DNA of 64,000 nt from Candidatus Sumerlaeota bacterium (GCA_020848155.1 JADLAR010000003.1:3089-67088), one strand, 5' to 3'; numbered from the stretch's first letter, positions 1 through 23,175 are shown. Program-made: numbers and translations. Notes: generated by a model not told the origin, from the sequence alone.

Positions 1-2352
1 ATCCAGAATCGCCTTGGCTTTCAGCATCTTGGGCAGGTGAGGCAATTGTGCGAAGGCGCCGGAGAGATCCTTAACTCGCCGTGAGGTCTCCCCCTCTCGC
101 CACAAGTCGTATGGCCCATCGGGCAATAAAGCTTCTGCGGATATGGACGAATCTTGAACCCGCGACCGATCATCATTCTTGATGATCATGAAGTGGGCTT
201 CTTCGGTCACATTGATCTTGAAAGCCTGAGCCTCATTCTTCTCGGAAACTGTCACCACCGTGCAGTAAGCCTGTCTAACGGCTTCAGGGATTTTTTTTCT
301 CGCCTTGTCTATATTCATGCCAAGCGTGCTCATACGTGCAACGTCCAGCTGCCCGTCCTTCTGTTGCTGTTTCAGATCCACTTCAACCTGTTCCCAAGCC
401 AGATACTCACGAACCGCTGCCGAGGCGACCTCGACGCCGTCCCTGGATGGTGCGAGCAGGATCAAGGCATTGCGGTAGACACGGGGCTTGTCGGAACTCG
501 TTGTTTCATCGAGGTAGCGCTTCGCCTCCGCGCTCGGCTTTCCGGAATCGCTCGCTGCGTTCGGCCCAAGCACCGCGTAATGAAACAAACCATCGTCTTC
601 GATATCTTTGGGCTTCGTGGGGAGCATATGAACCCGCACACCAAGCGCATTTGCACCTTCGGAAAGCTTCTTCGTTCTCTGGATTTCGTCCAGGAGTCGT
701 ACTTTCACAACATCGTCGTTGATACGCGATGCCGCGACGGCGTGCATCTGCGTCAGGTTCGGACGATTGCCAAGCCGCCAGGTCTCTGGCACTTGATTGC
801 CCTCTCCTGAAGTATATTGATCATCCAGCCAAAAACTCACCTGCGCCCATTGTGAGAGTCCCTTCTCCAACTCGATCTTGTCCGGTCGGCTGGGAGCGAT
901 CAGCACCGTCAGATCGCGCAGCTTCGCACTCTGGCCGATGGGTTGGGAGTGCAGGAAAGTCGCCGCGATAGCTTGTTCGATCTCGCGGAACTTCAGGCCG
1001 ACAGAATCACGCTGTATATCTCGCCCGCGCTGCAGTTCTCCCTCGATGACGCCCGTCCATGCCTGACGTTTTCCCTCATGCTCTTCTGTATCTGCCACCG
1101 TCACCAACTCGCGCATCGCCTCGGAAAGCCCATCCTTGCCTTTTTGCGTTAGAAAAACGCACGGCCCCACCAGCGGGCTCTCGTCCCACTTCGCCGCCTC
1201 CCGCAACGCCAGCGCGAAGGTCCGCAACACGCCACGCGTTCGCTGAAAGCGATCAAGCTGCGTCCATTTCGCATAGAACACTTCGGTCAGGTCGGGATGG
1301 AACGGATAACTCTTGAGGAAGCGCTCCTCCGCATCAGCGCCTTGCTTTCGTGTTTGCTCGTCCAGGTCACAAACACCCTTGAGAGCAGCCTGCACATGCG
1401 AACGGAACGCATCGCGATCTTTGATCGACTCGGGAGTAAAAAACCGCCGGCGCAGAACTTCCGCCACATCTTCCTTCACTACCGGCTCCACAGCCTCTTC
1501 GCGTTGGCGCTGGAAAATATCGTAGAGCGCGCCTTGCAACTCCCGGCCAAAGGAATCGCTCTTTGACGGGTCGCTGGCGAGCAACGAGGCAACGATGCAG
1601 CATCGATCGACTTTCGTGGCAGCCTGCGTCAGGTACTGGAAGAAATTGATCATCCGATCCTTCCACTTCGCATCGGCCGCGACCTTCTCCCGCACGTACA
1701 TCAGCACTTCGTCGATCAGGATCAGAACGCCCAGTCCCTGCTTCTGCGGCATCTCCAGCAACGCCGTCAGAAGGTTCTCCGCTGGCGCCGAATCCCGCTC
1801 CTCCGCTTTGCCATCTGCGTGCAGCAGTTTGAGCCCGTCTTCTCCGGCTATCTGCCATGCGAGAACGCTCCAGGGCTGCTTCAATGTTCTGACGGCCCCG
1901 CTTGGATCGCGGACCTCCATGCCTTTCTCGACATCAAGCTTGTCGAAGCAAAGACCCGCCACGCGCGCTGCCGGCGGTTCCTGTCCGATTGCCTGCTCAA
2001 ACTCGGCCACGGATGGCAGCTTGGGAAGATTCGCCGGATTGGTGACCAAATGCCGGAGCGTAATCAGCGTGTGCGTCTTGCCGCCGCCGTAGGTCAACTC
2101 CAGCTGGCGCACCGCCTTGTCGTTCTTCCCCGCCAGGCGCCGCATCACGTCGCGCACAAGTTGCCGCAGGTTGTAGGTCGGAAAGGTCAGAGCGAAGAAC
2201 TTCTCCGGATCCTCGTAAATCGGCCGCTTCCCCCCCTGCATCAGGACCTCGTACAGATCGGCCGCGAACATGTGCATCGGCAGCTCGCCCGACTTCAGGT
2301 CGTCGCGCAGCCCGACCACTTCGTGCCATGGTTTCCAAGGTGTCTTCGCCAT
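1..2352 (-). CDS. DUF499-family ATPase (BrxC/PglY-like; 'anti-phage-associated DUF499'). Only the N-terminal ~784 aa are in the window; the gene runs off the window start.
   Basis: Uninterrupted minus-strand frame from ATG at 2352 to position 1. It is absent from the ORF track because there is no stop in the window. N-terminus MAKTPWKPWHEVVGLRDDL..FAADLYEV..EDPEKFF..TYNLRQL and Walker A LTYGGGKTHTLITL match the DUF499 hallmark. The start overlaps the SIR2 stop as TAATG. Confidence 0.7.
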   Translation of the reverse strand, partial: MAKTPWKPWHEVVGLRDDLKSGELPMHMFAADLYEVLMQGGKRPIYEDPEKFFALTFPTYNLRQLVRDVMRRLAGKNDKAVRQLELTYGGGKTHTLITLRHLVTNPANLPKLPSVAEFEQAIGQEPPAARVAGLCFDKLDVEKGMEVRDPSGAVRTLKQPWSVLAWQIAGEDGLKLLHADGKAEERDSAPAENLLTALLEMPQKQGLGVLILIDEVLMYVREKVAADAKWKDRMINFFQYLTQAATKVDRCCIVASLLASDPSKSDSFGRELQGALYDIFQRQREEAVEPVVKEDVAEVLRRRFFTPESIKDRDAFRSHVQAALKGVCDLDEQTRKQGADAEERFLKSYPFHPDLTEVFYAKWTQLDRFQRTRGVLRTFALALREAAKWDESPLVGPCVFLTQKGKDGLSEAMRELVTVADTEEHEGKRQAWTGVIEGELQRGRDIQRDSVGLKFREIEQAIAATFLHSQPIGQSAKLRDLTVLIAPSRPDKIELEKGLSQWAQVSFWLDDQYTSGEGNQVPETWRLGNRPNLTQMHAVAASRINDDVVKVRLLDEIQRTKKLSEGANALGVRVHMLPTKPKDIEDDGLFHYAVLGPNAASDSGKPSAEAKRYLDETTSSDKPRVYRNALILLAPSRDGVEVASAAVREYLAWEQVEVDLKQQQKDGQLDVARMSTLGMNIDKARKKIPEAVRQAYCTVVTVSEKNEAQAFKINVTEEAHFMIIKNDDRSRVQDSSISAEALLPDGPYDLWREGETSRRVKDLSGAFAQLPHLPKMLKAKAILD

Positions 2353-3455
2353 TACAGGACCTTTCCAGTTTCTTGCGGGGATTCGATTTCTTCAAATGGA
2401 GATACGTCGCTGGGAAATACTTTAGCGAGCTCGATGATCGTGAGGTGATGCGTCAAAAATTCTTTTGCTCCCAGTGGCATGCATGCGACTCGACTCGAAT
2501 CTGAAAGGCCGAGCACACGGAGGATACGATTCGTCTCCTCCGCTTTCCGCTCTTCATTCACCGGACCAATAACGGCAAGTACCCTCATGGTTGGATTGTT
2601 CTTAAGAGCCTGAGCCATGATCCCGTTAATATGATCGTCATAGAACCCATACCCAATTGCTACAATGAGCCGAGCCGAATCCAAAGTCCATCGGCGGAAT
2701 TGGTACGCCAGGAACAGAAAAGGATCCACGTACTGGAGTTTGTATGTGGTTCCGAATATGATCGAAAGCTGGTCATGGTGGATGTTGTTGTAGCCATCCC
2801 TGTAGGTTACTCTTCCGTCTGTGCCCTTCTCCCAATCAACGGAGCCATGAAGCTTGTACAGGAATATGGCAGGCTCTTCGACAGGCTCGAACATGCGCCA
2901 GTCCCAACATTTGTCGCCATCAAAGCCCCTTCCGATGGCAGAGTGAGCGCAGGCAATTTCCACACACCGATCGTAGTTCAGGGAGAAAACACGTAGCGGA
3001 TGTTCATACTCTTTCGCAAAATCCGTTAGTCGCGCGTAATACTGCGCGTCTTCATTATGGTTAAGTGTCACCCATTCACGAAGCTTCTTGACGATCAACT
3101 CCCGAAACAAATGGACGCGGGCAAGGTTTGGCCCGGCTACCTCTGTGAGCTTAGGCGACCAGGCACCAATGAACGGATAGAGCGGATGGTCGTCGCCCTT
3201 TCGCAGGTCGTCCAAAGTGGATACTAGGCGCTCAATGTTGAAGCCACTGACAAAATGCCCCCGTATTCCATCTGAGTAAATAATCGCACTCTTCACATAG
3301 TTGTAGAGATGAAGAAAGTCCTTCCACTCTTTATCATTCTGGAGCAGGCACTCCAACTTCTGGACCATTGAAACAGAATGTGGAATGCCCGCGTCTACGC
3401 TAGCCCCGGCGCCGAGGAGGATCAGAATCTCGTCTCTCTTGAACACAGTCGCCAT
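2352..3455 (-). CDS. SIR2-family protein (defence-type NADase-like effector), stand-alone, no APAZ
   Basis: Rossmann motif ILLGAGASVDAGIP, FSLNYD and LYKLHGS motifs of defence SIR2 (ThsA/DSR/pAgo-associated type). The track ORF is 2352..3515. The internal ATG at 3455 (MATVFKRDE) is preferred: it is preceded by AGGAG and lies 10 nt after the pAgo stop. Confidence 0.75.
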   Translation of the reverse strand: MATVFKRDEILILLGAGASVDAGIPHSVSMVQKLECLLQNDKEWKDFLHLYNYVKSAIIYSDGIRGHFVSGFNIERLVSTLDDLRKGDDHPLYPFIGAWSPKLTEVAGPNLARVHLFRELIVKKLREWVTLNHNEDAQYYARLTDFAKEYEHPLRVFSLNYDRCVEIACAHSAIGRGFDGDKCWDWRMFEPVEEPAIFLYKLHGSVDWEKGTDGRVTYRDGYNNIHHDQLSIIFGTTYKLQYVDPFLFLAYQFRRWTLDSARLIVAIGYGFYDDHINGIMAQALKNNPTMRVLAVIGPVNEERKAEETNRILRVLGLSDSSRVACMPLGAKEFLTHHLTIIELAKVFPSDVSPFEEIESPQETGKVL

Positions 3456-3465
3456 TTTCGCGCTC

Positions 3466-5424
3466 CTATAGGAACCAGGGGGGCATATTTTCGATCTCAA
3501 TCTCGGACAAACCAAGCTGATCGAAATGGCCTATGTACCTGGAAATAAGCTGGGCATAGTAGACGGAAACTGGTGCAGACTTCGCATTGAAGCCACGCCA
3601 ATTAGCTCCGGACAAGTTTACGGCGTCTTGCAAAAAACCGACCTCATCATCCTTCTCCAAACCGCTATTGGAATAGGTGAATTCAACATGCATCGGTCGC
3701 GCGATACGGCGAGTGACTTTGGGGTTATGATACTGGAGTCCTTCGAACCAGACCAAGTACTCGCCGCGCCCCAAGCGAACGAACGTGCTCTCAAAGGGCG
3801 TTTTGCTATTGTTCCAAAGGGCAAACCCTAGGTACTTATCCGTGTCATTAAACTTCATCGCAACCAGTCGTTTTCCGTTGGCAGAGCCTTCAGAAAACTT
3901 AGCTAGAGCACGATGGACTTGATCTAGCTCGTCTCGGCGCAATGCGAATGGGGTATGGATGACGAAGGTGCGGTAGGCTTCCTCGTGCTCATGGAGCACC
4001 CCTAGAACCCCATCAAGCAATGTTTTTAGATACTCGCCTCTATTCTCACTATGTGCGACGACCCTGATCGTTTCATAGAGACCACTTGAGTCCGTAAGCA
4101 CGGAATAGGCGAAATATTTCGAAATCTTCCCCTCCCCATCCTTTCGATGCGCCTGACCTAGACCTACAATTAGGCAGGACTCATTCCTCGGTTCCACTTT
4201 CCAAGGCTTACCTCCAAGTTTTCCGAATGCAGCCAGAGCAATGTTCGCAACCGACCACTTGAAGGTATTGGCGTTCTTCAGCTTCTCGACGCTCACCAAC
4301 TGCGTCGGTAAGCGATTCTTCAGGTAGGTATGCTTGAGTCTGAAATAGGCTTTCTGGCCTTCGGGATCTTCGCTTTCACGGCTCCATGGAAAGAGAACTA
4401 TCGGCAAAACGGTCTCGCTTCCCGCCTCCTCCTTCAGCCTGCCCAGATCGTGCTGGAGAGCCTGAATAGAGAAGCCGGAGACGGCGAGACCTTTAACGTT
4501 TTCTTTTTCCAGCTTCAGACCAAACATCCGTTCCATTCCCGGGAAGGTATGGTATTTCTCGCCTCTCAGCGCGAAATAGAGATCGTGTGCCAGCGGCTTG
4601 TCCTCCGGCCGGTACAGGAAGCAGATGCTAGAAGCTCCCTCGGGGGCTTGGAAAGGTCCAGAAGTTTTCAGTCCCTGAAACTGAGAGGTTGACCGCTTCC
4701 CATTCCCGAGGACGTATGTCTTGGATTCGAGATGCCTCGAAGAAAGGCCCTCCGAGGGCCATTGTACGTCAAGGCTGAGGAATTCACTAACTTCGAGAGG
4801 AAAAAGTTTGGGCTTGTATATACGTAGAAATGACTCGCATTTAAGAAGATGGTCAGCATAGAAGTCGGTATTCTCCCTCCCCTCCCTGTTCAGACTCAGG
4901 CTTCGTTTGAGGGTCTCGCGAGAAACAACATCCATCTTGTTTCGGAAATGGAACCCCATCAAGAAACCGAACTGCTGCTTGGAGCTAAGGTAGAAGGGTT
5001 CAAGCCAGACCTGATCAACCCCCAATTCATCGTCTCGCATCACGAAGTCAATTGTGCGTCGAAAGCACTTGGGATCGGTCCGATACTCATCGGCATTCAG
5101 GACCGCTTGAACTCGCTTGAGCAGGAGGTTGAATAAGAACTGGATAGTAAGCTGAATCTTTGTCCGTGGCGCAGCATCGAAGGGCTCGAATCCCTTCATT
5201 GGGTCGAAGGAGATATCGAAGTCAACTCTTCCAGCCTCCTCTTCGCCGAGCCCGACAGGTAAGGAGTATCTCCTCAATCCCTCTCTCCGCATAGCATCAA
5301 GGGCGCTTCCCGGCTCGCTTCGCCGACGATACACCCGGACAGCGAATTCCTGCGGATCGCACGCGAGGAAATTCAGCGTGATTGGTTTATCCCGGTTCGC
5401 GTTTGTGGGCGGTTCGCTGATCAT
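3466..5424 (-). CDS. Prokaryotic Argonaute, long-B-like (MID-PIWI core with ~250-aa N-terminal region), catalytically inactive
   Basis: MID 5'-phosphate pocket pattern Y-x3-K..Q (AYFRLKHTYLKNRLPTQ). PIWI G-x-D-V slot reads LIVGLGQAHRK, so the Asp is absent. C-terminal PVSVYYAQLISRYIGHF is the PIWI tail signature. The track ORF starts at 5481 inside the upstream gene. The ATG at 5424 (MISEPP) with GAAGGG 9 nt upstream is preferred; 5433 is also possible. Confidence 0.7.
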   Translation of the reverse strand: MISEPPTNANRDKPITLNFLACDPQEFAVRVYRRRSEPGSALDAMRREGLRRYSLPVGLGEEEAGRVDFDISFDPMKGFEPFDAAPRTKIQLTIQFLFNLLLKRVQAVLNADEYRTDPKCFRRTIDFVMRDDELGVDQVWLEPFYLSSKQQFGFLMGFHFRNKMDVVSRETLKRSLSLNREGRENTDFYADHLLKCESFLRIYKPKLFPLEVSEFLSLDVQWPSEGLSSRHLESKTYVLGNGKRSTSQFQGLKTSGPFQAPEGASSICFLYRPEDKPLAHDLYFALRGEKYHTFPGMERMFGLKLEKENVKGLAVSGFSIQALQHDLGRLKEEAGSETVLPIVLFPWSRESEDPEGQKAYFRLKHTYLKNRLPTQLVSVEKLKNANTFKWSVANIALAAFGKLGGKPWKVEPRNESCLIVGLGQAHRKDGEGKISKYFAYSVLTDSSGLYETIRVVAHSENRGEYLKTLLDGVLGVLHEHEEAYRTFVIHTPFALRRDELDQVHRALAKFSEGSANGKRLVAMKFNDTDKYLGFALWNNSKTPFESTFVRLGRGEYLVWFEGLQYHNPKVTRRIARPMHVEFTYSNSGLEKDDEVGFLQDAVNLSGANWRGFNAKSAPVSVYYAQLISRYIGHFDQLGLSEIEIENMPPWFL

Positions 5425-5440
5425 CGTCCGCATCCCTTCA

Positions 5441-8400
5441 TTACTCGTCTCCCTTCTCTTCCTTCGGCAAAAAACTCGCATCCTGCACTGTCGCGCCCTT
5501 GGCGCGCACGTGGTTGCTGAGGCTTTCCAGGAGCGCGCGTTCCTCGCTGCCGGCGTCGGCCAACTCGATCAGCGACTGCACCAGCCGAATGAATAGCTCC
5601 TGGCGGCGGAGGCCGTGTTCGTCCAGGTATTCGTCCACCTTATGCACGTCCCCGGCACGCCATAAATGCATCAATCGGTGTATGCGGTCAATCAGGGGGA
5701 TCGGGCGGCCGCTGGGAGCCTCGTAACCCATCGAGGAACGCTTGCGCTGGGCCCAGGTCTTCAGCTTGAGCTTCCCGCCCGAATCCCCGCTATCGTCGGG
5801 ATCCGCCTCGGCATCCGGATCGGCGTCGTCCTCATCGTCATCATCCGCGGCGGCCTTGCTTCCCGTGTGCGAGACCAGGTCCCAAGCCGAGTCAAGGTCG
5901 CGATCTGACAAACCGCACGCTGTGGCATAGAGAATACACGCGCCGGCAGGAGCCTCTGCCAATCCGAAGTCGTGACGATGCAGAAGGTAATAGGCCGTCG
6001 GGGAATCCATGCGATCCGCCGCCGCCAGGTCTGATCCTTCGCCCTCGCCCGTCAGCACTTGGCCCACCACGAAGTCCACCACCATGCGCCGCACGAGGGA
6101 GAGAAACTCGCCCACACCGAGAACTTCGTTCGGCGTGTTCGCCTTTTTCACAATGGGGTGCTTGCTGTACGCTTCCAGCGCAGGACCCGTCGCCGACCAG
6201 ACAAAGTCCGGCCCGCGAATACCTGCATCCCAGAACTCGCGCAACCGATCACCGATCTTTGCCCGCATCTCTTCCAGTACCTTGTTGTCCCAGCCGGGAC
6301 GAGCAGTCGCAGGGCGTTTCTTGCAGACGAGCCAGACGGAGGAAGAGAGAGCGGCGGAGTTCATCCCTCGCATGCGATTCCCCATCTCCGTCTGAATAGG
6401 CCAACTTCCATCAACAATAAACCCCGCGCGGATGATCGCCGAAACCAGCGTCTCCCAAGCATTGGGGTGCTTGTGTGCGAAAACGATGACAAGGCGCCCA
6501 TCGGTCGTGAGAGACTTTTCGCAAGCTATGAAGGCCCTCGCCATGCCGTCTTCATAGGATTGCTTGGACGCCTTGGAATCGCCGCCATGACGACTGTCAT
6601 CGTCAATTAGTTCGCCGTCATTCGCATCATGATCCCATTTGGGAGAGGTCTCGCCCAATAGGAAGGCACCGTTCTCCAGCGGGGTCCTGCTGACGAATCG
6701 CTTGATCCAGACATAGAAAAAGTCCATGAGGTCAGAGTATGGGATCGCATCGTAATAGGGCGGGTCGGTGACAATACAGTCATACTGATGGTCGCTCATT
6801 TTGATAGCACTGTGATTTAGCGCTTTGGGAGTGGGTGAGGCTATCGAAGCTTGCATAATGTGCTCCCATGCTTCGCACAACCACTCAAGGTTTGAAAGGT
6901 AGTTTCCGGTAGTTTGGGAGATGGGATTTCCTTCACAGTAGTCCCAAATGATTGGTAGGGCAAACCTCGTAAATGTTCCTTGAAGGTTATCCCGCGTATT
7001 ATCCCATCGGCAAATTGAAGATTGCCTATCAGCGATTCGGTCCATTCCCACTGCAAGACCAGCATAGATTGCTTCTGTCCATGTGTGATCATAGCCTCTG
7101 GAAGTCAGTTCGCCCAGCGACGTCCTGCTGGATCGCAAGACCATTCCCAGCGTCTGTAACTGCCTATCTGTGAAAACATCGCGCCACTTCATCAAACCAT
7201 ACCCTTGGATTGAAAACGCCCGCGCAGCACCTCTACCTCCACCAGCCGGGGTCGGTTCCTCTGGACGACCGAACGGAATACTTGAGTAGACGTGATCTAT
7301 TGTCTTCTTGGCTCTGAGAGCGCACTTGACTTCGTGTTCAGTGGCTACCCGATACCCTTTACCAGAAGGACCTTCGACCACAACGGCTGTGGCAACCGCA
7401 GATAAATGGCCGCTTTTGCCCTCTACGCGAATATCTTCCATCGTCATAATGGTCTGGCAGCACGGGCACTGCACGCCTGCACGGGACATCGTTCCAGCCG
7501 ATATACGTTTATCATGCTCTCGTTTCTGCGCAGCGTTGCCTCCCTGCGCAGGGACGTTGTCCTGGATGCCGAACTCGACGCCGGTGCCATCGGCTTTGGG
7601 CTTCATGATCAGCAGGACGCGCTTGTTGTCCTTCTTGCAGAGCCAGCGCGTCTTGAGCAGCGGCACCTCGGCGCGGCAATTCTTGCACTTGACCGTCCGC
7701 GCCCACAAATAGGCCACCGTCGGTTTCGCCACCCATCGCGGGTTGCGTTTGGACTTCAGATATTCTGCTGTGAACTCGCCGTTGAGGGCCTCGATATCCG
7801 GTGTGCCATTCTCCTTCAGAGGGACCAGCCGCATCTCCTGCCGCTCGTAGGGCGATTTGTCTTTGAGATCAAGCCGCTCGAAATCCGCATAGGTGGGGTA
7901 ATAAGGGGCCAGTTCCTTGCGGGCCTCGTTGAGCACCCACCGCCCCCAGGCGCGCACATGCCAGGCGAGGTCCGCCCGGGGCGCGCGGCCTGCGTCTATA
8001 CGTTCCTTCTCAAAGAGATCGCCGGTGGCCTCCTCCTCCTGCTTTTTCGTGCGCTTAGTGCGACCGACCAGATGCGGGTGCGCCTTGTAGAAAGACTCCA
8101 TAAACTCCTCGTCCTCCAGAATGAAGTCGGGGAGCGGGTGCGTCTTGCCGGCGAGTTTCTGAGGATACTCCAGCGTGCATTTGAGGATGAACCAGGCGAC
8201 CGGGTTGATGTCCACCGCGGTGGCTTCGCAGCCAAGGCGCATGGCCTCCAGCGGAATCGCCCCACCGCCGGCAAAGGGATCAAGCACGCGCGGGGCGCGT
8301 CCGCCGTAGGCCTTGCGAATCTCCTCGCGAAAGAAGGCCAACTCCTTCTCGCGCTGGGCGACGGCGGCCTGGTGCTCCGCGATCTTCTTTTTCCCGCCAG

Positions 8401-9823: not shown

Positions 9824-9826
9824 CGT

Positions 9827-11140
9827 CTATACTCCATCATGGCCACGCGCGAGCTGGAGGATACTCTCGATTCTAGCGTGATCGTACCATAGTGGATTGA
9901 CTGCAAGGATATCGGCTTCGGAGAGAGCTGCCAGCATTTGGAGAGTGTTCTCGTTTCGGGCAATAGGTGCGAGTTCTTGGACACGTCGACCACCTCCGCA
10001 AAGATCTCCAATCAGATCATGATAGCAAACCAAGGTCAGAACTGCGACAGCCTCGTCCCGGGTTATATCGGGTAGGTTGTTTAGCAACTCAACGCAGCTG
10101 GGAAGGGCCTGTATCGGATGATCCGTGTCTTTCTTGTATTTCCCATCCTTCCTATTTCTACCGTTCGGAATCCCTTTGCCTACGTCGTGAAGGTACGCCG
10201 CAAGTTTGGTGAGTTTCTTTTCTCTTGCTGATAGAGCCACGTAGCGAGGGCGCTTCTTGAGCTGTTCAACTACCTGAAGCGTGTGTTGACCTACATCTCC
10301 ATGAATTTCATCCTGTAGCCCACATAAGGCCCCTGTAAGTGGATGGTTAGCTAGATCAGCCTTCAATTGCTTTAGCAAGTCGTCCAACGGAGATAGTGTG
10401 CAGCCTGTTCCCTTGCTGGCAGCTATTTGGCGAACCGCCTTGGTTAGTTCCAACTGTATTGCCTTAGGACCACTTACTATAGATCGCTTTGCCCCTTCGG
10501 AGGCGTAAAATGGTGTTATGAAATGGTGTGAATCATACTCTGTTTTTATGTTGATGTTCTGAGCCGCGAGATACCGTTGCACCTGGTCCGCGATCGCTTT
10601 GTTCCAGACTACTATGCTATCAATGGTTGCAAGAGGTACGGAGCCGTGAATGAGGAACTCTGCCATCCTTTTATGCCTTTGAACCTCATTCTTTAGCGAC
10701 CACTTTTGAAGCTCTATGCATTCCCAGTCCAAATTCGCCAGCGAATGTGGGGAATTGTAGAAGGTAGGGGGTATATTCGTATTTGCCGAGGCATCCGAGA
10801 AAACATAGGGATAACTAATCGCATCGCGCAGTTTGACGCGCAGGAAAATAAGGAGCTGCTGATCTGCCACCCTCCTAAACACCACTCCTGTAAACATGTC
10901 TGTGAGCTTCGCAAAATAAAAGGGAACGTAATTATGCACCACTCCACCTGGGCCACAAGTCACCCTCGTATTGGCCCTCCTCGCCTGAATTCCTTCGTAC
11001 GCTACGTCGTAATGGATGAGCCCACGGCTGAGCTTTTGTTGTGTTGAGAGCAAACCGCCTTGGGACAGGATCGATGGCAGATTATCCAAATGAGTAAAGT
11101 GGTACACCATTCTGTCTTGGTGTATAGCAGGCAGTGTCAT
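9827..11140 (-). CDS. darT: DarT (DUF4433) ssDNA thymidine ADP-ribosyltransferase fused to C-terminal HD phosphohydrolase domain
   Basis: MVYHFTHLDNLPSILSQGGLLS, VVHNYVPFYF and RMAEFLIHGSVPLATIDSIVVWN match the DarT catalytic core. The C-terminal half has H..(30)..YLHDVGKG..DHP..CYHDLIGD, an HD motif set. The stop lies 3 nt before the macro-MTase start. Confidence 0.72.
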   Translation of the reverse strand: MTLPAIHQDRMVYHFTHLDNLPSILSQGGLLSTQQKLSRGLIHYDVAYEGIQARRANTRVTCGPGGVVHNYVPFYFAKLTDMFTGVVFRRVADQQLLIFLRVKLRDAISYPYVFSDASANTNIPPTFYNSPHSLANLDWECIELQKWSLKNEVQRHKRMAEFLIHGSVPLATIDSIVVWNKAIADQVQRYLAAQNINIKTEYDSHHFITPFYASEGAKRSIVSGPKAIQLELTKAVRQIAASKGTGCTLSPLDDLLKQLKADLANHPLTGALCGLQDEIHGDVGQHTLQVVEQLKKRPRYVALSAREKKLTKLAAYLHDVGKGIPNGRNRKDGKYKKDTDHPIQALPSCVELLNNLPDITRDEAVAVLTLVCYHDLIGDLCGGGRRVQELAPIARNENTLQMLAALSEADILAVNPLWYDHARIESILQLARGHDGV

Positions 11141-11973
11141 GATGGCATCCTTTCCTGGAGCTTGCGTAGCAGCAAGTCCCCGACAATTCCCATTACCTGT
11201 GTAGCGTGCCTCGCTTCTTCCGAGGTTACACTAGGAAGCCACGGATGGCCATGCCCGGTCCCTTGCTTATTGCGCAAGGTGTTGATCGCGCATGCCGCCT
11301 CATAGAGCGCGCGTTGCAATCGCTGTTGAGGTGTGCCGGAGGTTGCCGGATTGTCGGCCGATGTCTTCAGATCCAGCGCTGCGAAGGCTTGACCAAGGAG
11401 CGTGGGGAAGTTGTGGGGCGGATTGTTGTTATTCCATACTTCCACAAGGACATGCGCCGCGATTGCCTCAAGGAGATCCTTACCTGTGCCAACCACCAAT
11501 GCGGCATCCTCAGACCCCCTCTGGGCTCTTCGCACGTAGGCGCCTAGTGCCTCAGTCAACTCCGTTCCGACGAGACTATCCAAAACGGCGGGCTGAATAT
11601 GACCATCTGGAGACAGGATGAATCCTTCTGCAGAAAGGACGTCGCGGAACGCCTGAATCTCTTCGCTTCCCACATAGTGCGCAGATTCCGGGCGGAACCC
11701 ACCGCATGACCGAACCATCGCGATCAGACGATCGACAAAGTCGCGGCCCCCTTCGAAGGAGTTCTCAATTGCCCACGAAAGGATAAGCCGAACGCGCTTC
11801 GCTTTGCCGACGGTCTGACCGCTCTGCTTCGGATCGCCGCGCTCAAGCCCTGAGGAGGTGACGCAGAACTCAATGTCCGAATGGCTTGGATCACGTCGCT
11901 CCTTTTGTGCGTCGTCAACTAATCGAGCCAATGCGTAAATGATAGCATCAGTCAGAGGTGGCTTGGTCCTCAT
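11137..11973 (-). CDS. Abi_C / HEPN-like abortive-infection-type protein (278 aa)
   Basis: C-terminal LRNKQGTGHGHPW is an R-N-x6-H motif of the HEPN/Abi_C type. ATGA overlaps at both ends. Confidence 0.5.
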   Translation of the reverse strand: MRTKPPLTDAIIYALARLVDDAQKERRDPSHSDIEFCVTSSGLERGDPKQSGQTVGKAKRVRLILSWAIENSFEGGRDFVDRLIAMVRSCGGFRPESAHYVGSEEIQAFRDVLSAEGFILSPDGHIQPAVLDSLVGTELTEALGAYVRRAQRGSEDAALVVGTGKDLLEAIAAHVLVEVWNNNNPPHNFPTLLGQAFAALDLKTSADNPATSGTPQQRLQRALYEAACAINTLRNKQGTGHGHPWLPSVTSEEARHATQVMGIVGDLLLRKLQERMPS

Positions 11974-12284
11974 GCTGCTCCTCCTAACTGAGCCATGACT
12001 TCATCGACAGACATGGACCTGCCATTTTGGAGCGTTCGGCCACCCTGCCATTCTCGACCTCGGGCTCGTTGGTTCGCGTCCCACTCTGAGTATTTCTGAA
12101 CAGTCGGACCAGAAACATGATAGAGACATCCTGCAACAATTTCGCCGGAGAAGCTGCCTCGCCGCGCGAGCCAGATATGCAGCGTCGAAATATGCCCATA
12201 CCGCACATTCCTCTCGTGCGCGGGGGTCAGTGATACCTGCTTGAGAGGAAAGGCGCGTTCGATAAGGCGGGGGGTGTCGGTCAT
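11970..12284 (-). pseudogene. Relic 5' end of a DUF1156 methyltransferase gene. First ~32 codons are conserved, the rest is unrelated. It may still be translated as a 104-aa peptide.
   Basis: MTDTPRLIERAFPLKQVSLTPAHERNVRYGHISTLHIW matches aa ~363-400 of the 1460-aa fusion protein. About 100 nt (12183..12280) is ~85% identical to 8640..8736. Confidence 0.6.
12183..12280 (-). repeat. Direct repeat copy 2 (ancestral DUF1156 start region)
   Basis: Aligned by eye to 8640..8736, ~85% identity over ~100 nt. Confidence 0.6.
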
Positions 12285-12292
12285 GAGCTATA

Positions 12293-13738
12293 TTACCTTT
12301 TCACAATTCGTTGGTATTCGGAGTCTGTACCTAGACGTCCCATCGCATTCGGTGGAAAGGAAATTATCTTATCCAAGCCCCGATTAATTTCTGTATTAAC
12401 TGCTTGGGTTTTTATGCGTGTAGCCAGCGCGGCGTATTCTTGACCGCACGAAGTGCTTTGCAATCGACTCAAAAATTCTCGGTCGTATGGCAATCGAGTG
12501 AAGATCCGAATGTGACGATCTTGCCACTTCGAGATCAATTCATCGTAAAAGGGGACGGCTGCATTTGACACCCCATATCCGTTTCCAATTCTGCAAAGCG
12601 TTAAAACCTTCACGTACTTTGCTTCGACGCTGTGGGGGACGGCGCCATTGGCTGGAATTAGGCGAGACAATGCTCTTGCTGGAGCAACTTCGCGAGAGAA
12701 GTTACTCCAGCCTTGGTGGGCCGAATAAAGGGAATCCACAGCGGTACCGATTTCGACGGCGAGGGTCTCTGCTGGCAGAAAGCTAAGGCCGTCAACAAGG
12801 TCCAGAAACTCCCGAATCAGTTTTGCGCGTGCCACATCTCCGTTAGCGGCGAGGGTCGCTTGCTTCAGCCCTGCTTCATACTTGGCATCATCTGGTGCTG
12901 CCCCCCAAAGCCCAGCTGCAATCAACTTTATGTTATTCCGTACGTGTGCATCCAAACTCGGGTCTCCGTACATTCCGGCGATCGCCCTCGACAACGAAAT
13001 CAGCAATTCATCCGGAAGGAGCTTTATCGCTTCAATTATCGCTGGAGTATCACTTGAACTGAAGGTGTTTTCTCGGATGTTCTTCAACAACCGCCGGACC
13101 TCAAGTGCGGGACCGACCGGGTCTTTCGCCAACACCTCCTTTACGCAGGTCTCCAGCCAACTCACCAATTGAAGTCCAGAGAGATCGTTTTGATTAGGGT
13201 GGGCCGCGCTCGCATGGTTTCGCATGGAGCGAATATAGTCCAGATGGCGGTAACCAATGTCCGTGATGATACCTGCTTCCATGGACCCTTTGATCAGCTC
13301 CCAGTCCTCGATCTTCGCCAAATCCTCAGGAGTTCGTAGTTTCGACCTTCGCGCTGGATCTGTGACAACCGTGCTGAAGAAGTAGTCGAGATCAAACCGC
13401 GTGACCTTGTCGCGTATACTCCGAACCGTTTCATCCCACAAATAGTTCAGAGCAGCATCGAAGAGACCGATGCCACATGCAGCGACGAACTTAGACAGAT
13501 ACATGGCACTCTGCTTCTGTTCGTCGTTCAGAAGAGCAACGACGTCAGGAAGGTTGTTGATCACCTTGCGGCGTTCCGATTGTTCCACGAGAACTGCTTC
13601 TGAGGGCACACCTAGATAATCCAGGTAAGTGGTAAGCCCCGAAGCAAACTGTGCCAAGGATTCAGAGACTGCATCTGGATTCGAAGGGATTATATCAGCC
13701 ATCGCTTGTTGTCGCTCCGTGAGAGGATATTCATGCAA
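12293..13738 (-). CDS. Hypothetical protein (481 aa) with HEPN-like R-x6-H motif
   Basis: DYIRSMRNHASAAHPN resembles the motif in the 278-aa Abi_C-like ORF. No other domain recognised. Tight coupling to neighbours. Confidence 0.4.
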   Translation of the reverse strand: MHEYPLTERQQAMADIIPSNPDAVSESLAQFASGLTTYLDYLGVPSEAVLVEQSERRKVINNLPDVVALLNDEQKQSAMYLSKFVAACGIGLFDAALNYLWDETVRSIRDKVTRFDLDYFFSTVVTDPARRSKLRTPEDLAKIEDWELIKGSMEAGIITDIGYRHLDYIRSMRNHASAAHPNQNDLSGLQLVSWLETCVKEVLAKDPVGPALEVRRLLKNIRENTFSSSDTPAIIEAIKLLPDELLISLSRAIAGMYGDPSLDAHVRNNIKLIAAGLWGAAPDDAKYEAGLKQATLAANGDVARAKLIREFLDLVDGLSFLPAETLAVEIGTAVDSLYSAHQGWSNFSREVAPARALSRLIPANGAVPHSVEAKYVKVLTLCRIGNGYGVSNAAVPFYDELISKWQDRHIRIFTRLPYDREFLSRLQSTSCGQEYAALATRIKTQAVNTEINRGLDKIISFPPNAMGRLGTDSEYQRIVKR

Positions 13739-14996
13739 AATACTCCTGATCTAAAGGCAGGAACCCAAACACGAGCCCGCCGGTAGTATAGAAAAGGTGG
13801 CCCTGAAGCGTGAAATGCGTGTATCCGCCACGCTCTGTTCTTCTGAAGGAGGGGTTTACGTTTTTCTTGAACTCCTTCTGAAAGCGACCATTTGGAACAA
13901 CGCATCGAACTTTCTGAAAAACTCTGCGACGTTTCATGATGAAGGAGGCTATCGGATCGAAATCTTGCTTGGCGAGCATGGGCAGTAAGCCACCATTAAT
14001 ACCAATGAACAAACACGCCTCTTTACTTAGGGCGAAAACCTGCCCTCCGGCACTATCGTCGTCTGTATGCGACTTATTTGCGAACCACGCCAGCCCACCC
14101 GATGCTCCGCGGATGTCGAAACCCTCTCCATCCCCTCTCAATAATCCAACGCTATCCAACTGAAAAGGGTCTGAAAGTTCCTGGAGCGCAGAGACACGAG
14201 TTTGCAGCGATGCTGAAAAAGGGGATCGAGGGCTGATGAAAGAAATCAGGTCTCTCAGGTTCTCAAGTCGAGCTAAGAGCCTAAAGTCTTCGGGGTTCGT
14301 ATCTTCGGTGAGCGGTGGGTCGAGGAGCCAGCATTTCGGCCTTGTGCCCTTGCGTCCGTCTAGCGCGACGATTGTTCCATACCTAACACCATTAGCGGGG
14401 GCAGGGTTAGCTTTCTTTTTTTTGCGGATATCAGAAGCGTGAGAATATACACTCCCACGGTCCTTCTTCCTATTATCAGCGCACGACGTACCTTTATTTT
14501 CAACTTCAATGATAAATTCGCCCGAACTAGCTGCAAGAGAGTAGCTATAGTCTAGGGTCTTCGTCTTTCGTTCTTCTATTGGGCTCCAGTCGACCGATGT
14601 AAGCCGGTGAATTTTTGAAATCAGGGCCAGACCTATTGCTTCACCGAGTCTTTCGGAGGTTCCTCTATCTGTCCCTCTGGGAGCGATGACTCGAAGAGCT
14701 CCTTCTTCAATTTCAATTAGCCCGTCCCAGTCGAAGAGCGTATGTTTTGCCTTTTTCTCTAGTATTTCAGCGAAGCTGAGGTAACCCGGAGCGCCTTGCT
14801 TCCGCTTGAGAAACTGTGAATAGACAAGAACTTCATCCGTTGGAACCTCAATCTGTCCCGGGATCTGAATCTTGTCTAAGTACTCTTTAGCAGCAGAGAC
14901 CTTCAGGGCGTCTTGATCTGCCCTATTGTAGTAATCAACGTATACTTTGAGGGTGTCAGGTAGGGTTCCAGTAAATAGAGCTTCGGCTAGAGCCAT
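13731..14996 (-). CDS. Hypothetical protein (421 aa), no recognisable domain
   Basis: Long ORF in operon context, AT-rich. Only a weak D..(E)xK-like FIIEVENKG motif. An 8-nt overlap with the next gene, and 1 nt after the helicase stop. Confidence 0.4.
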   Translation of the reverse strand: MALAEALFTGTLPDTLKVYVDYYNRADQDALKVSAAKEYLDKIQIPGQIEVPTDEVLVYSQFLKRKQGAPGYLSFAEILEKKAKHTLFDWDGLIEIEEGALRVIAPRGTDRGTSERLGEAIGLALISKIHRLTSVDWSPIEERKTKTLDYSYSLAASSGEFIIEVENKGTSCADNRKKDRGSVYSHASDIRKKKKANPAPANGVRYGTIVALDGRKGTRPKCWLLDPPLTEDTNPEDFRLLARLENLRDLISFISPRSPFSASLQTRVSALQELSDPFQLDSVGLLRGDGEGFDIRGASGGLAWFANKSHTDDDSAGGQVFALSKEACLFIGINGGLLPMLAKQDFDPIASFIMKRRRVFQKVRCVVPNGRFQKEFKKNVNPSFRRTERGGYTHFTLQGHLFYTTGGLVFGFLPLDQEYFA

Positions 14997-14997
14997 A

Positions 14998-17900
14998 TCA
15001 GCTTTCCCCCGCTTCCAATACTTGGTTCTGCCCGATCCTCACCCCGCCCGTCTCCACCATAGCGTTAATGGTCCTCACCACGTTCTGCGTCTTCTTGAAC
15101 GGCCGGACTAGCAGCTTAGCAAACGGGTCCTGAACGCGCACGAGCTGGGGCGTCGGTGTGCCGCAGTGATAGACAACGTAGAGCCAGTATTTGTCGCGAA
15201 GGTTGCATGCCTTGGCCCATTCGTTGTCTGTGATTTCGATCTCGCTGACACCAATGCACCCCTTCACCTCGATACAACGTTGGTTATTGCCGGGACGGGT
15301 ACTGAGCATGTCGAAGCCGGGATGATCCGGCATGCTGGCGGCGCGGGCGAGCGCCCGAGTGTGGACGTATCTGACGGTGGCGCCTTCAGCTTCCTCGTGG
15401 GCTTTTGCCAGGTCCATGGCGATTTGCTCGACATTGGCATCACGCCATTCCAGTTGGGCAGGATCGGTGGCGGGGATGACAAGGGCATGGGCAAAGAAAT
15501 TGACCTGACCGGGGACGAGCAATTCGGGTTCGCGGCGGAGCATCGTCAAGGCGCGGGTGCGACGCGTATCCAGATCGCGCTGCTGGTTCTTAATGTGGGT
15601 TAGTTCGGCGGCGGCGCCCTTGCTTCCAGTCCGGGACTTTTGCGACATCTTGGTGCGCGCCGCGGCCAACTCGGCCTCCTGGAAATCGAATCCGCGCTTT
15701 ACGAAGGACTCCCTTTCGGGAAGAGAGGCCACGCGACGTTCGCGGCATTCGACTGCGAGAGAGCGGCAAATGCGTTCAGCAAGATAGGCCTGCGCATGGT
15801 CGATGAGTTTGGATGCTTCGACGGCGAGCCGCTGCGCAAGCGGCGGCAGGCCTTGTCCGCCCCGGAGGAGAAGGAGGTGCTCGACAGGACATATCCTTAT
15901 ATCGCCGGATTCCGACTGACGGAGCCCAACGAGCCGGCACTCGACAGTTTCTTCACGGGAGAGTTCTGAGAATTCCGGATCGCCTTTTCGAATCACGGAC
16001 AGACGTGCGAGGTGAAAGAGATAGGGGGCCTCCGCGGTGGGATCGACGAAGATTGCCCCCTTGAGGGCTTCTTTGCCGAGCTTCTGGCGAACAAGCTCGC
16101 GAAACCGTTCGAACACCGGTTCGCCGGGATGGACCCAGATGCAGGACTGACGATCACCGGGACGATAGATCGAGAGCTTCTGGTTTTGTGGGTGGGGATA
16201 ACTTTCGATCGCTGAGAGCATCGGGTCGAGGGCCCCGTCTTTGGCGGGGACGAAATTAAAGAGAGTGCCGGGATCTCCGTCGATCTCAATGCCGACCATG
16301 GGCGCCGTCGAGGTAACGAATTTCCTGACATAACCAGGCATGAGACGAAAGTAGGTCTCTTGTTCGATGCTTTCGCGGAGACGGGGCAGCTCTCGTTTCA
16401 CATCACCGCCATCGCCGTATAGAACCTTCTCCTGATCCTGAATCGCTTTTACCTGCTCCTTGGAGAGGCGTCCGTCCAGTTCATGCGCGATAATTTCTGG
16501 GTCATCACCGGCTGCAATGCGCTGCATATATACCTTGATAGACACATCGCTGAAAATGCGGCCGATGCTGTCGAAGACCTTGTCGGACTTGAGCTGTTTG
16601 CGGATTTTTTCTAGTTTGTCGAGCAAGGTCTTGAGCACCCGGCCTTCCCGCGTCGCCGGTGCGACGAGGTTGAGGATGACAACGGGATCGTGCTGCTGAC
16701 CGTAACGATGGATGCGACCCATGCGTTGTTCGAGACGCGCTGGATTCCAAGGGACGTCGTAATTGATCATGATCCAGCAGAACTGAAGATTTACGCCCTC
16801 AGCGGCGGCGTCAGTGCAGATCATGAACCGCGCGCCGCCATCGACGGCTGGCAGGCGGAAACGATCGATCTGCTCTTGCCGCTCGGTGAAGTGCATGCCG
16901 CCGTGGATCTGAGCGATCTGGTCCGTATATCCCATTCCGCTTAAGCGGCGCACGAGGAACTCCAGGGTGTCTTTGTGCTCTGTAAAGACGATCAGCTTTT
17001 CCTGCGCGAACTGATCGTCCTGAAGTACGGTTCGGAGTTTGTCGTATTTTGACTCTGTGCCAGACTCGTAGACTCTGGAAGCGATCTCTCGAAGGGCCAC
17101 AACCTGCTGGCGCTCGGCCACCAAATCGCCGAGTGAAGATGCGATGATGCCCTGCAGCAGCCTGTCCTCAGCCAGTTCGTTTTCTTCCGTTCCTTCTTCA
17201 CAGCTTTCCTCGTCAGCCGATTTTGATTCGAGTACGTCGTCGTCATCCTTGATGCTTCTCTGATAAGCAAGCAACTGCTCGAATGTGATTCGACCGGACT
17301 GTATATCGTCGATAATATTATCAAGTTTGACGATGCGCCGCTCAAAGGAACAGAGAAGCGCAAAAGTGGAACTGGCCAGTCTACGCTGAAAGACTGACAT
17401 GGCAAGCTGGGCCGCGGATTGATTCAGCACCCTGGCTTTGTTGTAGACGTGACGGAGATACTCAGTGGTCTGATCATAGAGATCCTGTTCGCTGCCAGCG
17501 CCGCTGCCCAGACTGTATCCGAGTGTATTGCAGACACGCGTCGGGTAGAGCGGCTGACCATCCAGGCGAACCATTTCTTCCTTGGTGCGTCGGATGAAAT
17601 AGGTTCGACGATTCTCGGCGGGAAACTGGTCAAAGGAATCGGGAGTGGAGAGGACCTCCGGCTCAAGAAGGCGCCAAAGTGCGTAGTACGGGTAATCCTT
17701 GCCCATGTGAGGCGTCGCAGTGAGGAGCAAGAGATGGTGTGACTTCCACGGAAGCTTCCAGCCGCGGTCACCTGTATCTACCCCCGCGATGGCTTCTGCT
17801 AACTTGTAACGGTCGGTTTTGGTGACTCGGAAATCGGATCCCCGGCTAGAGGAAAGCTTGTGCGCTTCGTCGAAAACGATCAGGTCATATGGTTCAACGT

Positions 17901-18606
17901 CATCTGCTGCGAGTCGCGAGAACATCTTTTCACCGGCAAGGGTATCGACGCTCACGATTGCCTGATCACTTGTCCTTCCCACGAAGGGGTTCCCGGACTT
18001 CGCATCCTTCCCACTGATGATCTGGAAGGATAGGCTGAAGAGAAGTTGGAGCTCGCTCCTCCAGTTTCCAACGAGTCCAGCAGGTGGAACGATCAAGACG
18101 CGACGGAGCAAACGACGTGAGAGCATTTCTCGTATATACAACCCCGTCATGATCGTCTTCCCGGCCCCGGCATCGTCAGCCAGGAGAAACCGTAACCGGG
18201 ACTGCTTGAGCATGTGATCATAGACCGCGATTCTCTGATGAGGAAGCGGATCGATACTGGCGATCTCTGTAGCGAACGCTGGATTTGCCAAGTGCCCGAA
18301 TGATAGCCGCTCCCCCTCAACAAGAGAACGGACAAGCTCTGGGCGTGACGTAAAATCCGCAAGTGGAGCAACCGCGCCGTAGGGAGGAGGTTCGGGTTCG
18401 GATACAACACCAGCACCGTCATCTTCAGCCAGTTCCAAGAGACGATTCCAAGAGAGCTGCGAGGGCCGAGATTTCCCATTCTCCCACCTGTTAACGGTGG
18501 GAAATGATACACCAAGTAGCCCTGCTAAATGGACCTGGGTCAGACTCAGTCGAGCCCGCAGCTCCTTGATTTCATTTGGGTAATTTTCTGTTGGCCTGCG
18601 ATCCAT
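14998..18606 (-). CDS. XRE-type HTH + SNF2-family helicase + DUF3883-like C-terminal domain (1202 aa)
   Basis: HTH LSLTQVHLAGLLGVSFPTVNRWENGKS. Walker A LADDAGAGKT, DExH LIVFDEAHKL, LLLTATP. Helicase-C motif VI LEQRMGRIHRYGQ. C-terminal IEVKGCIGVSEIEITDNEWAKA..YWLYVV is a DUF3883 (PD-D/ExK-like) pattern. Confidence 0.8.
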   Translation of the reverse strand: MDRRPTENYPNEIKELRARLSLTQVHLAGLLGVSFPTVNRWENGKSRPSQLSWNRLLELAEDDGAGVVSEPEPPPYGAVAPLADFTSRPELVRSLVEGERLSFGHLANPAFATEIASIDPLPHQRIAVYDHMLKQSRLRFLLADDAGAGKTIMTGLYIREMLSRRLLRRVLIVPPAGLVGNWRSELQLLFSLSFQIISGKDAKSGNPFVGRTSDQAIVSVDTLAGEKMFSRLAADDVEPYDLIVFDEAHKLSSSRGSDFRVTKTDRYKLAEAIAGVDTGDRGWKLPWKSHHLLLLTATPHMGKDYPYYALWRLLEPEVLSTPDSFDQFPAENRRTYFIRRTKEEMVRLDGQPLYPTRVCNTLGYSLGSGAGSEQDLYDQTTEYLRHVYNKARVLNQSAAQLAMSVFQRRLASSTFALLCSFERRIVKLDNIIDDIQSGRITFEQLLAYQRSIKDDDDVLESKSADEESCEEGTEENELAEDRLLQGIIASSLGDLVAERQQVVALREIASRVYESGTESKYDKLRTVLQDDQFAQEKLIVFTEHKDTLEFLVRRLSGMGYTDQIAQIHGGMHFTERQEQIDRFRLPAVDGGARFMICTDAAAEGVNLQFCWIMINYDVPWNPARLEQRMGRIHRYGQQHDPVVILNLVAPATREGRVLKTLLDKLEKIRKQLKSDKVFDSIGRIFSDVSIKVYMQRIAAGDDPEIIAHELDGRLSKEQVKAIQDQEKVLYGDGGDVKRELPRLRESIEQETYFRLMPGYVRKFVTSTAPMVGIEIDGDPGTLFNFVPAKDGALDPMLSAIESYPHPQNQKLSIYRPGDRQSCIWVHPGEPVFERFRELVRQKLGKEALKGAIFVDPTAEAPYLFHLARLSVIRKGDPEFSELSREETVECRLVGLRQSESGDIRICPVEHLLLLRGGQGLPPLAQRLAVEASKLIDHAQAYLAERICRSLAVECRERRVASLPERESFVKRGFDFQEAELAAARTKMSQKSRTGSKGAAAELTHIKNQQRDLDTRRTRALTMLRREPELLVPGQVNFFAHALVIPATDPAQLEWRDANVEQIAMDLAKAHEEAEGATVRYVHTRALARAASMPDHPGFDMLSTRPGNNQRCIEVKGCIGVSEIEITDNEWAKACNLRDKYWLYVVYHCGTPTPQLVRVQDPFAKLLVRPFKKTQNVVRTINAMVETGGVRIGQNQVLEAGES

Positions 18607-18647
18607 AGCCAGTGCGTTGCTCCCGGCGTTTCAGTCTTGCGAGAGTG

Positions 18648-18676
18648 GATATAGCGTTTGTTATACCATGCGTCAA
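18648..18676 (-). promoter_or_regulatory. Candidate sigma70-type promoter for the defence operon
   Basis: Minus strand TTGACG, 17-nt spacer, TATATC, ~38 nt upstream of the helicase ATG. By eye only. Confidence 0.25.
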
Positions 18677-18976
18677 GTCCCCACGCGATTAGCCGCGGCA
18701 AACGTCCAATCCCCTTATTCGGATGCCGGTTCAGCATCGCCTTCCGCAGGAATGTGCACCGAGTTCATTTTGGAGCCTCCTTGGAGTCCAGCCAAGACAC
18801 GATAGCCTGAGGCCGATCACCTGCTCCGCCCTAAATCGTGCCCCACATATGCCCCACGGAGGGCGGGAAATGGGGTGAAAACGCGGGAAATCAGCCAGCG
18901 AAGTAAAGACGTAAGATGAGCATTATGAGCACTATAGGGAAATGGCGGGAAGGCCCTGAGCCGATTGCCAAGGTGG

Positions 18977-19009
18977 AGGTCGCGAGTTCGAGCCTCGTGT
19001 CCCGCTCCA
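18977..19009 (+). other. tRNA 3'-end fragment (T-arm + acceptor 3' strand + CCA), probable integration-site (att) remnant
   Basis: GCGAG-TTCGAGC-CTCGT forms a 5-bp T-stem with a canonical TPsiC-like loop. It is followed by GTCCCGC-T-CCA. Upstream sequence cannot form D or anticodon arms, so this is not a complete tRNA. Confidence 0.35.
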
Positions 19010-23174: not shown

Positions 23175-23175
23175 C

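Follow-up and report, generated by a model that had tools for sequence, protein, structure and literature searches.

A Hma defence operon of Candidatus Sumerlaeota with immune modules at both insertion hotspots and DarG joined in frame to its DUF1156 methyltransferase

The DNA analysed here is a stretch of 64,000 nt (the window) from a contig of a Candidatus Sumerlaeota metagenome-assembled genome (MAG; GCA_020848155.1, JADLAR010000003.1:3089-67088), and its first 18,606 nt carry a chain of ten genes in which a helicase, a DUF1156 methyltransferase and a DUF499 ATPase enclose a DarT/DarG pair, a pAgo–SIR2 pair and several smaller cargo genes. Judged by its domains, the backbone of this chain is Hma, alias the Type-1 BREX-related DUF499-centred system, with the genes hmaA, hmaB and hmaC. 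With a probability of about 0.72, we read the locus as a Hma operon acting as a carrier, both of whose known insertion hotspots have been loaded with independently capable immune modules that would act as parallel layers.

Layout and expression signals of the ten-gene chain

According to the open reading frame (ORF) map, the minus strand holds an unbroken chain of ten co-directional ORFs from position 18606 to the window edge (Table 1), as a first-pass annotation of this DNA had claimed. The intergenic distances across the ten genes, read from the sequence, range from −8 to +16 nt. The same annotation had put them at −8 to +10 nt; its TAATG, its two ATGA overlaps, its 8-nt overlap and its gaps of 1 and 3 nt all hold, but the upper limit rises to +16 nt after correction of the pAgo start. 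The ORF-maximum coordinates of pAgo (3466-5481) and SIR2 (2352-3515) use the most upstream start codon, and the apparent overlaps of these two ORFs with their neighbours result from that choice. Because an identical NCBI protein is annotated with 652 amino acids (aa) and the homologues measure 630-660 aa, the ATG at 5424 is most likely the pAgo start. Likewise, SIR2 most likely starts at the ATG at 3455, with AGGAG upstream, since all of its homologues are 367 aa long.

Table 1. Genes of the Hma operon and its upstream leader, from the 5′ gene to the window edge; the last column gives the junction with the next gene downstream
Feature	Coordinates	Strand	Size and remarks	Junction
hmaA	14998-18606	−	1202 aa; heads the operon	+1 nt
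u421	13731-14996	−	421 aa	−8 nt; TTG start of u481 at 13738, AGGAG upstream
u481	12293-13738	−	481 aa	+8 nt
hmaB′ relic	11970-12284	−	104 aa	−4 nt, ATGA at 11973
Abi_C-domain protein	11137-11973	−	278 aa	−4 nt, ATGA at 11140
DarT-HD	9827-11140	−	437 aa	+3 nt
DarG::HmaB fusion	5441-9823	−	1460 aa	+16 nt with the pAgo start at 5424
pAgo	3466-5424	−	652 aa	+10 nt with the SIR2 start at 3455
SIR2	2352-3455	−	367 aa	−1 nt, TAATG at 2352
hmaC	1-2352	−	first 784 of ~1110 codons; gene cut by the window edge	
Upstream leader with candidate sigma-70-like promoter	18607-18700	−	read by eye; not called by the consensus scan	

The candidate promoter in the leader consists of TTGACG (18676-18671) and TATATC (18653-18648), both on the minus strand and separated by a 17-nt spacer, and ends some 42 nt ahead of the hmaA ATG. 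It is overlapped by TGgTATAAC, which could serve as an extended −10 element. A repeat search 5′ of hmaA gave no convincing operator. In the consensus scan, promoter- and terminator-like matches within the region showed no excess over shuffled sequence, and no minus-strand match of either kind fell at a gene junction. We propose that a single promoter upstream of hmaA, whose product bears a helix-turn-helix (HTH), would drive all ten genes, and that the tight or overlapping junctions would couple their translation. A megablast search of positions 1-19000 against plasmids returned no match.

The Hma backbone and its nested modules

HmaA joins an N-terminal XRE-type HTH to a SNF2/DEAD helicase core and a C-terminal NOV_C/DUF3883 nuclease of the PD-(D/E)XK type, with Pfam matches to HTH_3, SNF2-rel_dom, Helicase_C and NOV_C and a PADLOC HmaA match of 2.1e-153 over residues 88-1162. 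Its Walker A (GAGKT), DEAH and nuclease (FDM...IEVKG) motifs are intact. HmaB is a DUF1156 N6-adenine methyltransferase (Pfam DUF1156 5.7e-18; PADLOC HmaB 6.6e-116 over residues 369-1253 of the fusion) with intact motif I (DPFAGGG at residue 515) and motif IV (DPPY at residue 1020), and is 75-78% identical to standalone HmaB proteins. HmaC is an ORC/Cdc6-like AAA+ ATPase of the DUF499 family (Pfam 3.3e-18; PADLOC HmaC 1.7e-78 for the 784 N-terminal aa in the window), carries the motifs GGGKT (Walker A) and LILIDE (Walker B), and has homologues of 1107-1113 aa. The same co-directional order hmaA-hmaB-hmaC, with insertions, recurs in seven of the loci used for comparison (L001-L003, L007, L008, L014 and L088). 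Gene order and nearly all domain identities of the first-pass annotation were confirmed by Pfam, PADLOC and NCBIfam, and so was its view that the modules are nested in a DUF1156/DUF499/helicase unit and partly fused with it, beyond mere adjacency.

The hmaB/hmaC slot is occupied by pAgo and SIR2. The pAgo gives a PADLOC pAgo_II match of 5.2e-194 over residues 32-671 of the 671-aa ORF-maximum translation; about 340 of the 652 aa lie ahead of the MID-PIWI match, and the nearest solved structures are the inactive AfAgo, EcAgo (BPAN) and RsAgo. At the GxDV(T/S)H motif, which we take to hold the position of the first catalytic Asp in Argonautes, the window protein reads GLGQAH, the Gly being invariant in 12 relatives. 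By this motif-level test, pAgo is catalytically inactive; it is probably of the long-B type. The adjoining SIR2 is of the bAgaS-type SIR2_2 class (PADLOC Aga_SIR2 1e-120), keeps the NYD and LHGS motifs and is predicted to be an NADase effector. Such a combination of long-B pAgo and bAgaS SIR2 is known as BPAS.

A survey of the pAgo family, in which one genome per species was scanned, yielded 80 loci. A SIR2 homologue lies immediately downstream of pAgo in all 80; the pair stands alone in 78 and sits inside a Hma operon in the other two (L008 and L014). A Hma-specific pAgo family, considered as a candidate, is ruled out by those 78 loci. In the window the pair does not stand alone, with hmaB at 16 nt and hmaC at −1 nt. 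Its closest pAgo relatives, at 54-61% identity, belong to L002, L003, L007 and L008 and are all placed between hmaB and hmaC (L004-L006 are fragments of the L003 arrangement, with a pAgo identical to that of L003). In a neighbour-joining tree of 84 pAgos, calculated without support values, the embedded pAgo of the window groups in a single clade with those of L002, L003, L007 and L008, and the likewise embedded pAgo of L014 branches elsewhere, among stand-alone relatives. The topology implies that the pair has long been kept at the hmaB/hmaC position and was possibly captured twice.

DarT-HD consists of a DarT single-stranded DNA (ssDNA) ADP-ribosyltransferase (aa 1-205) and a C-terminal HD phosphohydrolase (aa ~280-380), detected by Pfam at 2.6e-42 and 2.5e-4, respectively. 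It scores 151.6 bits with the NCBIfam model toxin_DarT (cutoff 150) and matches the Thermus DarT structure 7OMV at 1e-24; the catalytic Glu is kept, with 'MAEFL' aligning at the E160A position. The HD residues H...HD...D are invariant between the window and L001. Two metagenome scans gave no relatives of DarT-HD. Downstream of it, DarG and HmaB form one 1460-aa protein, which comprises a macrodomain (aa 1-150), the DarG middle region (151-330), a non-conserved linker (331-365) and the DUF1156 methyltransferase (366-1460). PADLOC recognises DarG in residues 1-163 of the fusion (2.6e-64), the macrodomain matches the DarG of M. tuberculosis and T. aquaticus (5M3I, 6.5e-36; 5M31, 8.7e-32), and the active site is kept (PTK Lys, GCGNGGL loop). 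The order of toxin then antitoxin is thus preserved, but the two are not free proteins, given the HD domain of DarT and the fusion between DarG and HmaB.

Among the best 120 HmaB relatives listed, the fusion occurs in two loci, the window and L001. The L001 protein is the one full-length relative, with 67% identity overall and 51% in the DarG part. An assembly or annotation artefact was ruled out by the continuous frame in two independent assemblies at this level of identity. At the seam, L001 retains the 'MTD' of the old hmaB start and the window has lost the internal Met, so that the window HmaB can be produced only as a fusion. The joint looks like the outcome of a lost stop codon between neighbouring darG and hmaB genes, and DarG::HmaB is the sole physical coupling between modules in the locus. 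Other HmaB relatives (P0003/P0015/P0037 and P0026/P0034/P0071/P0104, together with L002 5280-8921) carry an extra domain as well, either a GIY-YIG nuclease (PF01541) or an IS200-like Y1 transposase (PF01797); fusions of the HmaB methyltransferase thus seem to recur and not to be confined to DarG. Elsewhere, the DarG part of the fusion shows 41% identity to a macrodomain gene that lies directly upstream of a stand-alone pAgo–SIR2 pair, on the opposite strand (L026 9346-9828, Pyrinomonadaceae MAG).

Between hmaA and DarT-HD, four further ORFs fill the hmaA/hmaB slot. The u421 product is probably a nuclease of the PD-(D/E)XK type; its family is rare and unannotated, with 18 proteins. As the first-pass annotation had proposed, the 481-aa protein is a HEPN-domain protein: it is all-alpha, shows the HEPN fold and a conserved Rx4-6H motif, falls into an unannotated PHROG family and is predicted to be an RNase effector of the abortive-infection type. 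A distant u481 homologue (25% identity) is found about 4 kb upstream of a stand-alone pAgo–SIR2 pair in an uncultured Desulfobacterium (L013 5078-6277). The Abi_C protein (Pfam Abi_C 8.4e-12) shows a HEPN-type Rx6H motif, RNKQGTGH at residue 234, and a homologue with 69% identity lies directly upstream of hmaB in L014.

The short ORF between u481 and the Abi_C gene opens with the native start of a standalone HmaB, MTDTPRLIERAF..., and matches positions 1-33 of Pfam DUF1156. Its aa 3-42 are 85% identical to aa 366-405 of the fusion; the similarity ends after codon 42, and the remaining 62 codons have no homologue in any comparison locus. On this sequence evidence the ORF is a recombination scar left by a second, diverged hmaB. 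It is not a fresh duplication, because the two hmaB copies are too diverged. The simplest reading is that recombination between two different Hma loci made the present operon. One donor would have supplied hmaA-u421-u481-hmaB′ and the other Abi_C-DarT-HD-DarG::HmaB-pAgo-SIR2-hmaC. Such an origin is suggested by the position of Abi_C directly upstream of hmaB in L014 and by a HmaB tree out of step with the cargo, in which the L001 HmaB groups with those of L003 and L007 (86-87%) and the window HmaB with that of L002.

Comparative loci and the explanations weighed

The hmaA/hmaB cargo is different in every relative. In L001 the order is hmaA, DarT-HD, DarG::HmaB and hmaC, without pAgo, SIR2, Abi_C, u421 or u481. 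The slot contains DUF4062 and Schlafen/HATPase genes in L002, UvrD, an M78 peptidase and an unknown gene in L003, PDC-M48B-like genes in L007, UvrD and Abi_C in L014 (Kiritimatiellae MAG FR_21) and a u421 homologue alone in L088. In L008 (Candidatus Hydrogenedentota AMX-MBFR-84) a complete type II CBASS, made up of a SAVED-endonuclease, a cyclase, E1-E2 and JAB, is inserted between hmaA and hmaB, with pAgo–SIR2 between hmaB and hmaC (cargo at 1741-6742 and 9992-13064). Each module is thus found in loci that lack the others, and only the window, among the loci compared, has the exact ten-gene combination. As side observations on L014, a caspase-like peptidase gene (Peptidase_C14) lies between its hmaB and pAgo (8405-9925), and its hmaA, hmaB and hmaC are each broken into two or three ORFs, possibly through frameshifts or assembly errors.

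Modular loading of a Hma carrier is favoured because 78 of the 80 BPAS pairs stand alone, because the hmaA/hmaB cargo varies and because the DarT-HD/DarG::HmaB pair of L001 occurs without pAgo–SIR2. On this reading the hmaA/hmaB slot holds u421, u481, the hmaB scar, the Abi_C/HEPN protein and DarT-HD, and the hmaB/hmaC slot holds BPAS. Hma methylation would mark self DNA and the helicase-nuclease would restrict unmarked DNA, with the HmaC ATPase as a putative sensor or loader. BPAS would sense invader nucleic acid via guides and respond with NAD+ depletion, DarT would ADP-ribosylate ssDNA once DarG falls behind, and the HEPN proteins and u421 may serve as RNase backups and as a backup nuclease, respectively. 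The catalytic motifs are intact in DarT, DarG, SIR2, HmaB, HmaA and HmaC. The layers would work in parallel, as a portable defence island in one operon and not as one interdependent machine; the cargo would have been assembled by recombination between diverged Hma loci, for which the conserved hmaA and hmaB ends would be the anchors. Several points weigh against this reading. The 3′ end of the operon falls beyond the window. One pAgo–SIR2 clade has kept its place between hmaB and hmaC despite divergence to 54-61% identity, and selection, either for linkage or for a shared function, could lie behind this retention. Moreover, the physical coupling of DarG to HmaB in two loci would be superfluous in a purely modular model.

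The first-pass annotation had suggested a cooperative layered mechanism. In such an integrated system the ten products would depend on one another, for example with Hma helicase-nuclease products serving as pAgo guides or with sensing by HmaB/HmaC gating the abortive effectors. The co-directional genes with junctions of −8 to +16 nt are consistent with this proposal, as are the retention of the pAgo–SIR2 clade in five loci of different lineages (the sixth, L014, being on another branch) and the covalent joint of DarG and HmaB in two loci. However, Hma is absent from the surroundings of 78 of the 80 BPAS loci, modules occur singly in L001 and L088, and the hmaA/hmaB cargo, including a complete CBASS, is replaced wholesale between close relatives; the relic indicates that a recent recombination produced the present combination, and the hma hotspots of Halomonas carry unrelated systems (PMC11232893). 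An integrated system is therefore unlikely, and the comparative data show the modules to occur independently of one another. Room for coupling is left by two observations, the covalent DarG::HmaB fusion and the pAgo–SIR2 clade retained between hmaB and hmaC. A tripwire limited to DarTG would account for the former: a phage factor that degrades, inhibits or binds the methyltransferase would also disable the tethered DarG and so free DarT-HD as an abortive backup, with the other modules independent. The methyltransferase would be the likeliest target of phage anti-restriction factors, and an attack on the restriction–modification (RM)-like layer would then unleash ssDNA ADP-ribosylation and possibly the HD-domain activity. 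The in-frame fusion in two diverged loci with macrodomain and methyltransferase motifs intact, a window HmaB that is made only as a fusion, and the established pairing of DarTG with RM operons (PMC12255303) all speak for such a tripwire. It is nevertheless improbable, given only two instances among the best 120 HmaB relatives listed, none in the two metagenome scans for DarT-HD, and a possible neutral origin via stop-codon loss, of which L001 keeps a trace in its 'MTD'. Weaker still is a companion idea for the retained pAgo–SIR2 clade, which would take its guides from the products of the Hma helicase-nuclease.

Decay or chance juxtaposition, with the nested genes as inactive remnants in a defence island, would explain the one clear pseudogene fragment, the hmaB′ relic, and would agree with the frameshifted Hma genes of the related L014. 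Yet the other nine ORFs have their full length and keep their catalytic motifs intact, the ATGA and TAATG overlaps at the junctions are preserved and the sub-architectures recur across independent assemblies, which makes this explanation very unlikely. The present locus gives a clean handle on the question whether nested defence systems merely travel together or cooperate. A functional fusion would tie a first-line methylation-based defence directly, at the molecular level, to an abortive toxin; if the fusion is not functional, the locus would be a well-resolved example of Hma operons shuffling defence cargo by recombination.

The operon has as its neighbour on the opposite strand a PsyrTA toxin-antitoxin/defence pair (21093-24474, plus strand) with a RecQ-like PsyrT (PADLOC 3e-273) and a DprA-like PsyrA (2e-132), so that the defence island reaches about 24.5 kb. 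Between the two, a 31-nt sequence resembling the T-arm and acceptor 3′ end of a tRNA, GTCGCGAGTTCGAGCCTCGTGTCCCGCTCCA, occurs at 18979-19009 (plus strand) and is unique in the window; terminator-like hairpins flank it at 19036-19057 (plus) and 19174-19151 (minus). ARAGORN found no tRNA in the window and an Rfam search of 18600-19300 gave nothing meaningful, and hence the 31-mer is regarded as a fragment only. It may be an att-site remnant at the edge of an integrated element carrying the Hma operon. Further along, large signalling- or defence-like genes are found at 28958-34294, 35922-37286 and 40348-43665. They encode a subtilase of 1778 aa that includes a beta-helix (PADLOC subtilase 3.5e-26), a Ser/Thr kinase that includes a cyclic nucleotide-binding (cNMP-binding) domain, and a protein that combines adenylate/guanylate cyclase, STAND(AAA_16) and TPR parts.

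Comparison with published systems

The Hma system was published by Payne et al. in 2021 (PMC8565338) and renamed the Type-1 BREX-related (BR) DUF499-centred system in Nucleic Acids Research in 2026 (PMC12839542). Liu et al. (2024, PMC11232893), in an experimental study of Halomonas Hma, reported insertions in about 66.5% of hma loci, with hotspots at hmaA/hmaB and hmaB/hmaC and with Septu, PARIS, Ppl and GmrSD-like systems between hmaA and hmaB. The Halomonas system cannot do without the nickase activity of its HmaA. The window shares with these loci HmaA (SNF2 and NOV_C), HmaB (DUF1156) and HmaC (DUF499) in the order A-B-C, as well as insertions at both junctions. The window differs in its cargo: Septu, PARIS, Ppl, GmrSD-like genes, an AAA_21 pair and nucleases make up the lists published so far, in which BPAS, DarT-HD/DarG, two HEPN proteins and u421 do not appear. 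It also differs in the DarG fused to the N-terminus of HmaB and in the HTH fused to HmaA. PD-(D/E)XK, HEPN, HNH and TOPRIM 'backup effectors' are described inside BR loci, those of the HEPN and PD-(D/E)XK kinds inside BREX loci as well (PMC12839542), and the HEPN protein u481, the Abi_C protein with its HEPN-type motif and the PD-(D/E)XK-like u421 take the same intra-locus position; the distinction is that u421 represents a rare, unannotated family of 18 proteins and u481 an unannotated PHROG family. The list of Hma-associated genes would thereby gain a DarT-HD variant, a HEPN family and a rare nuclease-like family.

BPAS was described by Song et al. in 2023 as a simple operon of two or three genes (PMC10620215). 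The window resembles it in having an inactive pAgo followed by SIR2_2 with the same order and spacing, whereas here and in five other loci the pair has no operon of its own and is placed between hmaB and hmaC. For DarTG, the closest precedent is the RRDM island of enteropathogenic Escherichia coli (EPEC), reported in 2025, in which DarTG2 lies inside a type I RM operon with a HTH repressor and a single promoter (PMC12255303). In both cases a restriction operon based on methylation houses DarT and DarG, begins with the gene of a HTH protein and has a single upstream promoter, that of the window being a candidate. In RRDM, however, DarT and DarG are free proteins encoded between hsdS and hsdR of a type I RM system, while the window has Hma as the host system, a DarT with an HD domain and a DarG that forms one protein with the methyltransferase.

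The first-pass annotation knew of no described system with this composition. That the architecture is undescribed is not supported, as the Hma backbone, its hotspots, DarTG2 within an RM operon and BPAS are all in the literature (PMC8565338, PMC12839542, PMC11232893, PMC12255303, PMC10620215). In the literature and supplements covered, which form an incomplete sample, no mention was found of pAgo, SIR2 or DarT in Hma/BR loci, nor of a DarT-HD fusion. We could accordingly not find a description of three features, namely the BPAS-in-Hma clade, the in-frame DarG::HmaB fusion and the DarT-HD fusion. Taken as a whole, the architecture fits a described pattern, that of Hma with loaded insertion hotspots, and its unusual feature is the fusion of DarG to the methyltransferase.

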